Part shown: piece by piece, positions 58,584-61,819 of the stretch
How positions within the stretch are numbered: the stretch's first letter is position 1
Layout: the number at the start of each line of letters is the position of its first letter
Assembly (NCBI GenBank): GCA_044375465.1
Contig: JBILMN010000002.1
Location: 20,633-84,632 of the forward strand
From: Oligoflexales bacterium
Lineage (GTDB): Bacteria > Bdellovibrionota_B > Oligoflexia > Oligoflexales > RGVZ01
Length of the DNA stretch: 64,000 nucleotides
Direction: 5' to 3'
Notes under the pieces: model-generated
Told to the model about the DNA's origin: nothing
Database searches by the model: none
Seen by the model: only the letters and a program-made list of their open reading frames with translations
Position numbers and translations under genes: made by a program

Positions 58584-59066
58584 TTGTTCAGAAACTTTCC
58601 TGAGCCCTGGGATGATAATGGATTCATCATGCTCTCTGAGCTCGATACCCCAGATCGTCAGACAACACTCCTGTTTATGTCCGCCAACTTTGATGAATCC
58701 ATTTACCATCTAACCTATTATGGAATCGAAGCCCCACCAAATTGCCCCATGCGAAAAGGATTTGAATGGGGCGAGATCACCTGGGATGAATTCTGGACGC
58801 ATCAAGAAAGACTCGTAAAACTCGTCTTCCCATTCGATCCTGGACCAGTGCATGCGGAATTCATCGGTCCGGATCAGATCAATCCTAGGACCAGACATTT
58901 TTTTCAAGAATATAACGACCAATCGCCGTACGAAATGAAACGCCGCACCCTAGAATCACTTTCTAAGACGACCACAATTCCTGAAATAGACCCCATCAAG
59001 GCATACCAGGACTATCTTAAATTTATGGCCCGACACGGCGCTAAGCTGCAAAAAGCTGCCGCGTGA
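58584..59066 (+). CDS. hypothetical cytoplasmic protein
   Basis: ORF from TTG 58584 (alternative ATG 58629); no signal peptide; no family recognised. Confidence 0.45.
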   Translation: MFRNFPEPWDDNGFIMLSELDTPDRQTTLLFMSANFDESIYHLTYYGIEAPPNCPMRKGFEWGEITWDEFWTHQERLVKLVFPFDPGPVHAEFIGPDQINPRTRHFFQEYNDQSPYEMKRRTLESLSKTTTIPEIDPIKAYQDYLKFMARHGAKLQKAAA

Positions 59067-59194
59067 ATGTCACTCACTGGCACAACAAAGCACTGAAATT
59101 TGCCTTGTACCTACGATTATTGCTTAAAAGGTTCGAATTCGTTAAAATTAGGAGCCGGACCTCACATGGACAGATCTCTCAAAAGGATGACAGC

Positions 59195-59638
59195 ATGAAG
59201 CTATTGATCCAGTGGACTATCGTCGCGATCATCGGATGCGGTCCTTTAGAGGCATTCGCTGGGCAAAAGATTATTGAGTGCAAATTAGACCAATATGAGC
59301 CGTCGACAAGACTCACGATTCCAGTCAAATTCGGCAATAGATGTAAATGGCAATGCGCTTGCTCTGGCGATCCCGGACAAAAACAACCTCACAAGCAAGA
59401 ATGCCCAGAGGGTGAGAAACCAATAGACAACGAGCAAACATGTGCTGTGCGAGAAATTTTTCTCGATATCTTTACGGAAGTTCCGGGCGATGGAGAATGT
59501 CCAACTTCTATAGACGGCACGGGTGCAAACAATGCAAAGACACAATGCCGCACTGCATGTTTGGCACAATTTCCCAAAGATTTAGTCTATGAGTGCGAAA
59601 AGAAATCGAGCGGATCTCAAGTGCCGCCGCGTCCGTAA
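59195..59638 (+). CDS. small cysteine-rich lipoprotein/secreted protein (147 aa)
   Basis: AAGGA RBS; MKLLIQWTIVAIIGC lipobox; 10 further Cys in the mature part (the ORF track starts at 59063). Confidence 0.55.
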   Translation: MKLLIQWTIVAIIGCGPLEAFAGQKIIECKLDQYEPSTRLTIPVKFGNRCKWQCACSGDPGQKQPHKQECPEGEKPIDNEQTCAVREIFLDIFTEVPGDGECPTSIDGTGANNAKTQCRTACLAQFPKDLVYECEKKSSGSQVPPRP

Positions 59639-59824
59639 GAAATTAGGCATGCCACACGTGGTGTGCCGCGGCCGCTCTGCATCTTACAATCGACGGATCA
59701 GTAGTAGTGGCTATCACAATAGTCATTTGATGGCCTGTCTATCCCTGCCGCAAAAGGATCGTTGCAGTGCGACCTCTACTAGTGATTGAAATTTTTCCGC
59801 CCGCGCGTTCAGCCTAAGCTCCCA

Positions 59825-59858
59825 TCCCTAGGGACCAATAATTTTTGGTCCCTAGGGA
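59825..59858. repeat. perfect 14-bp inverted repeat (each arm contains CCTAGG), possible bidirectional terminator
   Basis: TCCCTAGGGACCAA-TAATTT-TTGGTCCCTAGGGA; the right arm contains the TAG stop of the minus-strand gene; no clean T-run. Confidence 0.5.
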
Positions 59859-60760
59859 CCTGTTCGAACAATAATCGACCCTTGGCCGTTAGCTGTGATG
59901 CTGCCCTCCCCAGCAACAGAAATACATCTGATTTCAGGACCGCCACCTATACGTGTTTCTTGCGGTGATGTCGGGCAATTGGGCACTCGATGACATTCAA
60001 TGGCATCCGCAGTGCCCTCAATACAGATTGCGCGTCCTGCGATGTCGATCTTGTTGAGGTTGGCTGCAAAATTAAATCCTTTGGGCTTGAAGCAATAACA
60101 AATGCCTAATAAATCTCTTATGTGCTCCTCGTCTCCACTCATTGCACTACAAGCCGTCATAGAACTAGAAAACAAAGGCCCCCCTGGTGCAGCGGGTCGG
60201 ACATCACCAAAACGGCAATACGTCCTTGACTGGCCTTTTGCGAGCGCCGAAACAACGCAGGGCTTCGCGCCCGAACAAGTGAGCCCGGATAAATCGTTTT
60301 TCATCAGGATGTCTCGCGCCTCGACTAGAGCACCTAAACTGCCCGGAAAAACATTTGGATCACGTAAATATGCTTTGAGTGTCCCAAAGTCGTTGAATAC
60401 TTTTGTACCAAGCAGTGGAATCGCTGAGCCGCGGCAGTCAGTAGGCGCCGTCTTTGCCAGTTCGTTTAGCTCCTGATTAATCGCTGCTGTAGCTTTGCCA
60501 GCTGCCGCCGACTTGTCTAATGTTACAGTCGCACCAGGATTCACGGACCCAGAAATAGATGATAAGAAAATCGTATCAAAGTGGGCCTCAACAAAATTCT
60601 TATCAACAGACATATCCTGGAGCACAACTTTATACGACACACATGGATTATTCTGCATGCTCGGATAGCCACCACCGCTAGAACCACCAGAAGTCTGAGC
60701 GAAGCATATTTTCTCGACCCAAAGAATCACGCTTACGCCGATTACCGCAAAATGCCTCAT
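59852..60760 (-). CDS. secreted cysteine-rich protein, hypothetical
   Basis: Signal-like MRHFAVIGVSVILWVEKICFAQ, then a GGSSGGG linker and many Cys; start ambiguous (TTG 60814, ATG 60808/60796/60760). Confidence 0.55.
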   Translation of the reverse strand: MRHFAVIGVSVILWVEKICFAQTSGGSSGGGYPSMQNNPCVSYKVVLQDMSVDKNFVEAHFDTIFLSSISGSVNPGATVTLDKSAAAGKATAAINQELNELAKTAPTDCRGSAIPLLGTKVFNDFGTLKAYLRDPNVFPGSLGALVEARDILMKNDLSGLTCSGAKPCVVSALAKGQSRTYCRFGDVRPAAPGGPLFSSSMTACSAMSGDEEHIRDLLGICYCFKPKGFNFAANLNKIDIAGRAICIEGTADAIECHRVPNCPTSPQETRIGGGPEIRCISVAGEGSITANGQGSIIVRTGP

Positions 60761-61080
60761 CGACCTCAAGCGGATCCAACTGCATTTGTGCAACATAGAA
60801 GCTGTCATAGACAAACCCTTTTGAAAATCTCATGTTACATGCTTAGATTTTCCGCCATCGAATTTTGCTGCAATCATCACAGCTAAAATCTGCGCCCGGC
60901 ATACCATTCACCCCGCAGAAGTCGATTATAGCTATAATTAGACAAAGTAGGCTTGGTAATTTCAATGTCAAAAATCAGTTCGGCCGACTTTAACGCTACG
61001 ATTGGCGGGCCCGCATAGCATCTTCTTAACCCACATCACCTAAAGGCGGTCTGCAATATCAAACGTAATATTGTAACAAT

Positions 61081-61713
61081 CTACTTCCCACTCTTGGTAC
61101 TTCCAGAAGTACCGCCGCCACCAGAACCACCAGAACCACCAGAACCACCAGAACCACCAGAACCACCAGAACCACCAGAACCATCAGGTTCGACACACTT
61201 CCAAGAGGGATCCTTGGTATTGAACGCATTTATCGCGTCAATGCAATTCTTCACTTCAGTGGAAGCATGATCTGCAACTATGGAAGCTACGCCACCAATA
61301 AATGGAAGTTGGTCACAAACACCATTGAGATAACCCGTAAAAGTCCATGGGGTGGAACCAGTCGCCTTGCATACTGCATTCATCAACTGAGGGTAAGTCA
61401 TAACCTGCCCGATACAGGAAGGAAAAGCAGCCCAATACTGAGCAACGCAATAATCAGATAGGCCCCGAGCAAAAAGCTTGGAATCTTCATATTTTCGATC
61501 AAGGGTCGCTCGATGACCCCTAAACGCTGTAAAAGAAGCCAGATTAGAAAAGCACCCTAAATTATTTAAACACCACCCAAGAACATTTCCTCCACCTCCA
61601 CCTCCACCTCCACCTCCACCTCCACCTCCACCTTCACCACCATTTCCTCGAGCTTCACCGAAAGTTACGAACACAGTTACAGCCACGGCGTGTATAAAAT
61701 ATATGGCTCTCAT
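61081..61713 (-). CDS. secreted protein with poly-Gly N-terminal linker, 8-Cys core and (GSG)n C-terminal tail, hypothetical
   Basis: Signal-like MRAIYFIHAVAVTVFVTFGEARG; a run of 15 Gly; C-terminal GSGGSGGSG...; the ORF track start (GTG 61776) is an alternative. Confidence 0.55.
   Translation of the reverse strand: MRAIYFIHAVAVTVFVTFGEARGNGGEGGGGGGGGGGGGGGGNVLGWCLNNLGCFSNLASFTAFRGHRATLDRKYEDSKLFARGLSDYCVAQYWAAFPSCIGQVMTYPQLMNAVCKATGSTPWTFTGYLNGVCDQLPFIGGVASIVADHASTEVKNCIDAINAFNTKDPSWKCVEPDGSGGSGGSGGSGGSGGSGGSGGGGTSGSTKSGK
61120..61182. repeat. perfect 9-nt tandem repeat (ACCAGAACC x7)
   Basis: Counted directly; encodes the GSG repeats on the minus strand. Confidence 0.95.
61591..61632. repeat. 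perfect 6-nt tandem repeat (TCCACC x7)
   Basis: Counted directly; encodes poly-Gly on the minus strand. Confidence 0.95.
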
Positions 61714-61819
61714 GCGAAATCCCTGGGTCGATACAGGTTCATTTAACCAATGTTTTTTGAGCAGTGAATTTTTCACACAACACCCCCAAGCTTGAAAGTA
61801 TAGGGGGGGATCGGCATCT

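Follow-up and report, generated by a model that had tools for sequence, protein, structure and literature searches.

A stretch of about 3.2 kb with four open reading frames separates a type IV pilus operon from a methyltransferase gene in the 64,000-nucleotide stretch of DNA analysed here (the window). The DNA derives from a freshwater bacterium of the Oligoflexales (Bdellovibrionota) that has not been cultured. The four ORFs, labelled A, B, C and D in order, occupy positions 58584-61776 without overlapping, A and B on the plus strand and C and D convergent to them on the minus strand. On the left, the block is bordered by pilC (57193..58470, plus strand, 425 aa; Pfam T2SSF, E 6.8e-68), the last gene of a pilB-pilT-pilC operon, whose product also hits the NCBIfam models for PilC and GspF, with scores under their equivalog cut-offs. 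On the right lies gene E (61877..62950, minus strand), coding for an Rsm22-like methyltransferase of 357 aa (Pfam Rsm22, E 4.9e-13). The lengths, cysteine counts and Gly/Ser tracts that an earlier sequence-only reading had given for A-D were all found again.

The four ORFs are real genes. Counted from the first start codon they span 320, 231, 191 and 160 codons, and in 1000 dinucleotide-preserving shuffles of the block region not a single one reached these lengths, compared rank for rank; the longest ORF per shuffle had a mean of 126 codons and never exceeded 275. The annotated frame had the best codon-usage score of the six in each of A-D, with scores of +0.09, -0.08, +0.04 and +0.04, all lower than the housekeeping mean of 0.22. 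An AAGGA ribosome-binding motif is located 7 nt 5' of the ATG of B. In addition, A-D were all called by other gene callers on a second contig of 24 kb, which includes the exact 210-aa product of D, the exact sequence of B was called on two other contigs, and calls for A, B and C also exist on the Logan contig L042, whose end falls within D. Together with a dN/dS of 0.07-0.19 in the family of A, indicative of purifying selection, these results speak against spurious ORFs. Non-functional sequence, in the form of decaying remnants or young proto-genes, would be in agreement with the absence of detected homologs and the low codon scores of B, C and D, with the demonstrable truncation of A, and with the several rearranged forms of the region that occur in one and the same metagenome. 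However, decay or random sequence would not be expected to yield reading frames of 147-302 codons that retain intact signal peptides and an even number of cysteines, the shuffle and reading-frame results point the other way, and a sister lineage keeps a 196-aa gene in the place of D, after an E protein that is only about 85% identical, which makes this explanation distinctly unlikely.

Comparison with three Oligoflexales relatives (L001-L003) revealed that the left flank is conserved and the block is not. Eleven of the 12 upstream genes, pilC included, are collinear in these genomes at 49-96% identity (66-71% for PilC), and synteny stops at pilC. None of A-D follows pilC in the three relatives, of which L001 reaches about 1 kb past this gene, so that conservation of the block next to pilC was not borne out. 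The post-pilC genes of L002 and L003 differ from A-D and are missing from the window; judged by their translations, we take the genes after pilC in the relatives to encode a membrane protein and a Cys-cluster protein, with secG, kdsA and queG coming next. As neither a pilin nor a regulator follows pilC in the relatives, the Myxococcus-type arrangement expected in the sequence-only reading, with regulators and pilin behind pilC, is inapplicable to this bacterial order.

These data also bear on a possible role of A-D as pilus-associated proteins (tip adhesin, minor pilins or assembly accessories) that are co-expressed with pilBTC. A begins 113 bp 3' of pilC, both A and B directly follow pilC on the same strand, and no convincing terminator lies between (z -0.39); A and B may therefore be co-transcribed with pilBTC, and B, C and D are predicted to be exported. 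In contrast, transcription of C and D runs towards pilC and not with it, and the adjacency is missing in three relatives in which the neighbourhood is otherwise kept. A regex-plus-hydropathy scan, run on all six frames of both the window and L001-L003, detected no class III prepilin signal, defined as a short basic leader with a terminal Gly, a cleavage site in front of F/M, Glu at +5 and a following run of about 20 hydrophobic residues, so that all four proteins lack the G|F-x-x-x-E pattern with its hydrophobic stretch; in B, the hydrophobic stretch precedes 'G|CGPLE' rather than following it. The N_methyl and pilin models of Pfam and NCBIfam gave no match in A-D either. Thus, A-D resemble the type IV pilins and accessory proteins encoded near pilBTC in Myxococcus or Pseudomonas by their adjacency to pilC only, and differ from them in having no prepilin signal, no pilin domain and no conserved adjacency; in none of the relatives is pilC followed by pilus genes. 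We consider the proposed pilus association very improbable: in this order of bacteria, adjacency to pilC is no evidence of pilus function, and A-D are ordinary accessory gene content that nothing ties to the pilus.

A (58584..59066, plus strand) encodes 160 aa if translation starts at a TTG and 145 aa if it starts at the ATG at 58629. The product has no signal peptide and a single cysteine, and is predicted to be cytoplasmic. It had been described as a family-less orphan, which is refuted by three relatives of 178 aa each that are 98% (P0003), 74% (P0015) and 71% (P0016) identical. The alignment with these proteins extends from FPEPWD to the C-terminus, whereas the conserved N-terminal 22 residues of the family (motif DFAINWTYEQITxWR) are replaced in A by unrelated sequence, and the DNA similarity to the copy on contig L044 starts abruptly at 58596. 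Judged from these alignments, A is a 5'-truncated member or paralog of a small cytoplasmic family of 178-aa proteins and may have been copied recently. Outside the block, copies of the family are found in different contexts, adjoining a gene of 116-128 aa rather than B. In L044 they form an alternating tandem array with diverged copies that are 71-87% identical; apart from these copies, neither the window nor the 124 fetched loci contain paralogs of A-D. The 116-aa partner gene had no real match in Pfam, NCBIfam, PHROG or PADLOC. A search of the A profile against PDB yielded nothing significant, the best hit being a galectin stretch (E 0.0037 over 25 residues) that we judged to be due to chance, and Foldseek analysis of a family model (pLDDT 62.6) gave no significant fold (best E 0.06, TM about 0.2).

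B (59195..59638, plus strand, 147 aa), C (59852..60760, minus strand, 302 aa, or 318 aa from an alternative ATG at 60808) and D (61081..61713, minus strand, 210 aa, with an ORF extending to a GTG at 61776) look like exported proteins. Using heuristic criteria for Sec signal peptides (positive n-region, h-region of 7-15 residues, small residues at -3 and -1), we found in all three a short basic n-region, a hydrophobic core of 11-16 residues and a small-residue -3/-1 site, with AFA|G in B, CFA|Q in C and ARG|N in D as candidate cleavage sites. The best Kyte-Doolittle 11-mer scores 2.41-2.66 and lies within the first 16 residues, and hydrophobic 19-mers are absent outside the signal peptide, the maximum being at residue 3 in each protein. 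A C-terminal sorting signal or an outer-membrane beta-barrel, looked for as a hydrophobic C-terminal helix with a basic tail or as an aromatic last residue, was not recognized in any of them (C-termini ...PPRP, ...RTGP and ...KSGK), with zero matches to the NCBIfam sorting-domain models. While A has one cysteine, B, C and D contain 11, 13 and 8. All numbers are even in the mature parts: C has 12 and D has 8, and B has 10 after either candidate cleavage if one leaves out Cys15, the residue that would bear the lipid in a lipoprotein. The earlier description of three proteins combining a signal peptide with a cysteine-rich mature part therefore holds, as far as a heuristic n-h-c pattern can support it.

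For B, a lipobox had been proposed. The N-terminus MKLLIQWTIVAIIGC, with Cys15 in an IIGC context, follows the PROSITE-style lipobox rule ({DERK}(6)-[LIVMFWSTAG](2)-[LIVMFYSTAGCQ]-[AGS]-C, Cys at 15-35, K/R near the N-terminus), and the 10 further cysteines were confirmed. Since a classic AXA site for signal peptidase I, AFA|G after residue 22, competes only 7 residues past Cys15, lipidation of B is no more than plausible. A useful comparison is offered by those bacterial lipoproteins whose N-terminal tether is disordered, as known from lipoprotein sorting in Gram-negatives. B shares their lipobox, but differs in the absence of a Gly/Ser linker and in the competing AXA site. C, D and a further ORF of the window at 51245-51949 likewise place a Gly/Ser/Thr tract after the signal peptide, but C and D are without a lipobox cysteine.

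The signal peptide of C (MRHFAVIGVSVILWVEKICFA|Q) contains one of its 13 cysteines, and 10 of the 12 mature ones are found in the C-terminal half; a GGSSGGG tract is present. In a search against 5.8 billion clustered proteins, the sole match was C itself, and a full phmmer run against 1.84 billion representatives again returned only the self-match. With zero relatives in about 15 billion public proteins, C appears to be an orphan as complete as the databases at hand can show. The AlphaFold model of C was unusable (pLDDT 30.5). A perfect inverted repeat of 14-15 bp (59825..59858) is located where the convergent B and C meet, and overlaps the stop codon of C. The RNA folds of this hairpin reach -27.9 kcal/mol on the plus and -31.6 kcal/mol on the minus strand (z -5.6 and -5.9), values attained by 0 of 200 shuffles. 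From this fold and its position, the hairpin is likely a two-way transcript end, although the missing U tract distinguishes it from a canonical intrinsic terminator.

D consists of a signal peptide, a tract of 15 Gly, a 133-aa core with 8 cysteines and a (GSG)7-rich tail. Both low-complexity parts are encoded by in-frame tandem repeats on the minus strand: a 6-bp repeat for the poly-Gly tract (61589..61642, 9 copies, 93% matches) and a 9-bp repeat for the (GSG)n tail (61118..61187, 7.8 copies, 98% matches). Upstream of D, directly after the stop codon of E, an 11-bp hairpin, GTTCAAAAAAC-TAAT-GTTTTTTGAAC (61818..61845, minus strand), folds with -12.7 kcal/mol (z -3.2), and its sequence is kept in the sister-lineage contig L043. 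Unlike A-D, E itself is conserved, with 60-63% identity in four relatives (L045-L048), and its divergent Methyltransf_32 partner is kept as well. The neighbours downstream of E differ in these genomes; according to their translations they are presumably nitronate-monooxygenase-like and ferredoxin-reductase-like genes.

That A-D belong to no recognised family was confirmed by sequence and profile searches in Pfam, NCBIfam, PHROG, PADLOC and PDB. A, B and C had no match in Pfam and NCBIfam at E <= 1, and B, C and D gave none in the five collections once the low-complexity matches of D were discounted: its only Pfam/NCBIfam match was Gly-rich, and its PHROG matches were confined to the GSG tail. 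The homology search with D also returned nothing, which is a weak negative, as Gly-rich words dominated it and D is absent from the collection searched. For B, the evidence on relatives comes from the five family and structure collections. A domain common to B, C and D was ruled out by pairwise comparison, in which every E-value was above 8. The proteins correspond to the small secreted cysteine-rich ORFans, which are best described among fungal and oomycete effectors and are common among bacterial hypothetical exported proteins. Like these, B, C and D have a signal peptide, a size below about 300 aa, even cysteine numbers, a variable genomic spot and no detectable homologs; this is, however, a descriptive class and not a family, and B, C and D have no sequence or fold tie to any member. 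PilC of the closest genomes sampled is only 66-71% identical, so that the orphan status is probably due in large part to sparse sampling of the Oligoflexales, together with fast evolution of exported proteins.

In the sequence-only reading, C and D were noted to share a layout in which a signal peptide is followed by a low-complexity linker and then by a disulfide-rich domain. The ORF at 51245-51949, another lineage-specific exported protein, which is absent from the relatives, is built alike: its signal peptide is accompanied by a linker rich in Thr, Gly and Pro and by a domain that contains cysteine. By this comparison of predicted proteins, the layout is a general habit of the genome and not special to the block. 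Nor did the block stand as a unit, as A belongs to a separate family with other contexts and B, C and D are mutually unrelated.

An alternative is that B, C and D are secreted as effectors or toxins in predation or competition and that A is an immunity or chaperone partner. Many Bdellovibrionota are predators, and the three proteins are small, exported, disulfide-rich and unique to the lineage. Moreover, the alternating array in L044 recalls the immunity-gene arrays of polymorphic toxin systems, with which the A family shares small size, cytoplasmic location, diverged tandem copies and purifying selection; it differs from them in that a toxin gene, a known immunity domain and a significant fold match are all missing. 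Searches of Pfam, NCBIfam, PADLOC and PHROG detected no domain typical of a toxin, an enzyme or an immunity protein, the relatives of A pair with the 116-128-aa gene and not with B, C or D, and the copy in the window is truncated. For Bdellovibrionota, the point about predation was made with respect to secreted lipases (PMC11495043). A predatory lifestyle is not established for this Oligoflexales lineage, and on balance we regard the effector explanation as unlikely.

Taken together, the 3.2-kb stretch is probably lineage-specific filler at a rearrangement joint, in which B, C and D would be species-specific accessory proteins of the envelope or surface. The joint would be flanked by two conserved units, with the pilBTC operon on one side and the divergent methyltransferase gene pair on the other, as indicated by the end of synteny at pilC, the differing neighbours of E in relatives, the absence of the relatives' post-pilC genes and the abrupt start of A. 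The lack of pairwise similarity among B, C and D and the association of A copies elsewhere with the 116-128-aa gene suggest four genes of separate origin, i.e. a truncated A and three unrelated singletons. A recently acquired mobile island, such as a phage, plasmid or integrative element, would also explain why the block is located exactly at a synteny break, with a GC content of 0.47 that is slightly under that of the window (0.50). Yet we found no integrase, transposase, tRNA or flanking direct repeats, searches of viral contigs with A, B, C and the D core and of plasmids with A, C and the D core gave no match, and the composition is near that of the host; mobile origin is thus hardly credible.

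In this reading, the products of B, C and D would be Sec-exported with 5, 6 and 4 disulfide bonds, respectively, B probably being lipid-anchored and the Gly/Ser tracts of C and D serving as flexible spacers around a folded core. They would most likely be accessory proteins of a kind that turns over fast between lineages, and no parts of the type IV pilus machinery. As B, C and D offer no homolog, domain or usable structure, their suggested role is pure inference. The site marks a rearrangement hotspot. Overall, the findings are of modest practical value, and B, C and D would gain interest only if a part in cell-cell interaction emerged from expression data or structures. The literature yielded nothing specific to this locus, and an Rfam scan returned only sub-threshold plant miRNA models on palindromes near 63400, which were taken as chance matches.

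The near-perfect in-frame 6-bp and 9-bp repeats suggest that the length of the tracts in D could change by replication slippage. There is a small chance that B, C and D are founders of new disulfide-rich exported families for contact with prey, host or phage, with the linker of D varying in this way; its length would then differ between cells, providing a simple form of surface variation. Contig L042, which is identical to this locus, breaks off within the 9-bp array of D.

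The window covers part of the core chromosome of an uncultured member of the Oligoflexales (Bdellovibrionota), with an ABC transporter, pilB-pilT-pilC and, as read from translations, ribosomal-protein and nuo genes. In a species-level collection, three MAGs of freshwater Oligoflexales come closest (PilC 66-71% identical). Between pilC (57193-58470) and E, an Rsm22-like methyltransferase gene on the minus strand (61877-62950), lie four mutually non-overlapping ORFs: A (58584-59066, +), B (59195-59638, +), C (59852-60760, -) and D (61081-61713, -). A sequence-only reading had placed them at exactly these coordinates, and its details were confirmed as well: 11, 13 and 8 cysteines in B, C and D, the GGSSGGG tract, the 15-Gly run and the (GSG)7 tail. 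B, C and D probably encode species-specific envelope or surface accessory proteins, and the four genes are ordinary accessory content of a thinly sampled lineage.

ORF length, codon frame, upstream motifs and repeated gene calls together show that A-D are real genes. Each was longer than the same-rank ORF in 1000 of 1000 dinucleotide-preserving shuffles of the region, and each had its highest codon-usage score in the annotated frame. These scores are lower than those of housekeeping genes, but a conserved hypothetical gene 5' of pilB (53143-53544) had a score of -0.01, no better than A-D. An AAGGA motif stands 7 nt 5' of the ATG of B, and C and D are preceded by GAGG-like and AGGGA-like motifs. 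The same calls A-D are carried by a 24-kb JGI contig, and A, B and C are called on a 100% identical Logan contig. Convergent B and C are separated by a strong hairpin of 14-15 bp (about -30 kcal/mol, z about -5.7).

In the relatives' loci holding pilBTC (L001-L003), 11 of the 12 genes upstream of A-D are collinear (49-96% identity), a run of ABC transporter, penicillin amidase, HU, a Cob_adeno_trans-family gene, two conserved hypotheticals and pilB-pilT-pilC. Collinearity ends at the 3' end of pilC. The genes that follow in L002 and L003 (by our own reading a membrane protein, a Cys-cluster protein, secG, kdsA and queG) are unrelated and missing from the window; L001 reaches only about 1 kb beyond pilC. 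Relatives of E (60-63% identity) in four metagenome contigs retain its divergent Methyltransf_32 partner and are followed by nitronate-monooxygenase-like and ferredoxin-reductase-like genes (again our reading). A-D sit at a synteny break: since collinearity ends at pilC and the E relatives have other downstream genes, the four occupy a junction of two conserved blocks that are neighbours in this lineage alone. A sister lineage (E protein about 85% identical) has a 196-aa gene at the position of D, and a third arrangement occurs on another contig of the same metagenome; this position is evidently an unstable one. A mobile island is very improbable; viral contigs yielded no match for A, B, C or the D core, and plasmids none for A, C or the D core.

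The proposed pilus association of A-D was not borne out, as their adjacency to pilC is absent in the relatives and neither the window nor the relatives' loci showed a pilin-type signal. From the latter result, pilBTC stands alone as an operon in this group, and a place beside it is functionally uninformative; that A-D encode pilus accessories is hardly to be expected. Directly 5' of pilB, two overlapping hypothetical genes (133 and 268 aa, 53143-54269, +) without a Pfam family keep their place in all three relatives (49-60% identity) and are better pilus-linked candidates than A-D.

Nor do the four form the coherent block once suggested: B, C and D are unrelated to one another, and A has copies elsewhere beside a 116-128-aa gene. 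A-D are lineage-specific genes of separate origins. No match to any of them was obtained in Pfam, NCBIfam, PHROG, PADLOC or PDB sequences, so that the claim of no recognisable family stood for the curated libraries and fell for A, which has 178-aa relatives. Of 5.8 billion 90%-identity clusters C matched its own alone, and a full phmmer search of 1.84 billion representatives likewise returned nothing but C; its AlphaFold model, built without homologs, failed (pLDDT 30.5). For B, an exact-cluster look-up and curated libraries were used. D gave no match, a weak negative because Gly-rich words swamped the search and D itself is absent from the collection. These searches support B, C and D as apparent orphan proteins.

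The relatives of A, all of 178 aa, are 98% (P0003), 74% (P0015) and 71% (P0016) identical. Judged against them, A is a 5'-truncated copy: their conserved N-terminus MxxxKxxDFAINWTYEQITxWR is missing, DNA homology to the copy on an ENA contig (L044) begins abruptly at 58596, and only TTG (58584) or an internal ATG (58629) is left as start codon. By dN/dS (0.07-0.19; 0.13 for E versus its sister-lineage ortholog), the A family is under purifying selection. That A-D are non-functional remnants is, for all the truncation of A, quite unlikely. Copies elsewhere lie 3' of the 116-128-aa gene and in every case on very short contigs, suggestive of multicopy regions. L044 (1-1405) holds an alternating tandem array, A' - 116-aa gene - A'', whose two diverged A copies share 87% identity over 98 aa. 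The A family also occurs with the 116-128-aa gene, which is unannotated, on two JGI contigs (1966 and 906 bp). In the A-family model (pLDDT 62.6) a beta-sheet precedes C-terminal helices; no significant fold match was obtained. Neither the A-family protein nor the partner product matched a known family or fold. The array recalls immunity genes; effectors with an immunity partner are an unlikely reading of A-D.

The reading we prefer is that of envelope or surface accessory proteins. The n-h-c architecture and -3/-1 sites of their N-termini predict Sec export of B, C and D; of the original interpretation, orphan status and export remain, without the pilus link and the block. B is possibly lipidated at Cys15, with a competing signal-peptidase I site (AFA|G). 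Even cysteine counts in the mature parts (B 10, C 12, D 8) point to five, six and four disulfides. The Gly/Ser tracts may act as flexible spacers, and those of D, encoded by near-perfect in-frame 6-bp and 9-bp tandem repeats, may change length by slippage. In Logan, an independent assembly of the same population stops within the 9-bp repeat of D (61118-61187), consistent with repeat-length heterogeneity or assembly difficulty. A further lineage-specific ORF (51245-51949, -, 234 aa, no Pfam match) combines a signal peptide, a Thr/Gly/Pro-rich linker and a Cys-bearing domain, and is missing in the otherwise collinear relatives, whose amidase-HU gap is only about 235 bp. It thus repeats the order signal peptide, low-complexity linker, domain, which would therefore characterise this genome at large rather than mark the locus.

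E has a GC content of 0.58 versus 0.50 for the window; as its homologs in L043 (sister lineage), L045 and L047 (metagenome contigs) are likewise GC-richer than their surroundings, the high GC seems to belong to the gene itself rather than to indicate transfer. 3' of its stop, an 11-bp hairpin (GTTCAAAAAAC-TAAT-GTTTTTTGAAC, 61818-61845; about 1325-1352 in L043) and a nearby 21-nt stretch (TCAAAAAACATTGGTTAAATG) are conserved in the sister lineage and the sequence between them is not; they probably form a terminator and a regulatory site for D. Between E and the divergently oriented Methyltransf_32 gene lies an intergenic region of roughly 740 bp, against only about 50 bp in L045 and L047; it contains two tandem 53-nt units (63387-63508), each with a perfect 34-nt palindrome (TTTGGCTGGGTTGAATTCAATCAACTCAGCCAAA; RNA fold -55.7 kcal/mol, z -8.7). 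Found in none of 124 fetched loci, the palindrome may represent a miniature inserted element or else serve as a double operator.
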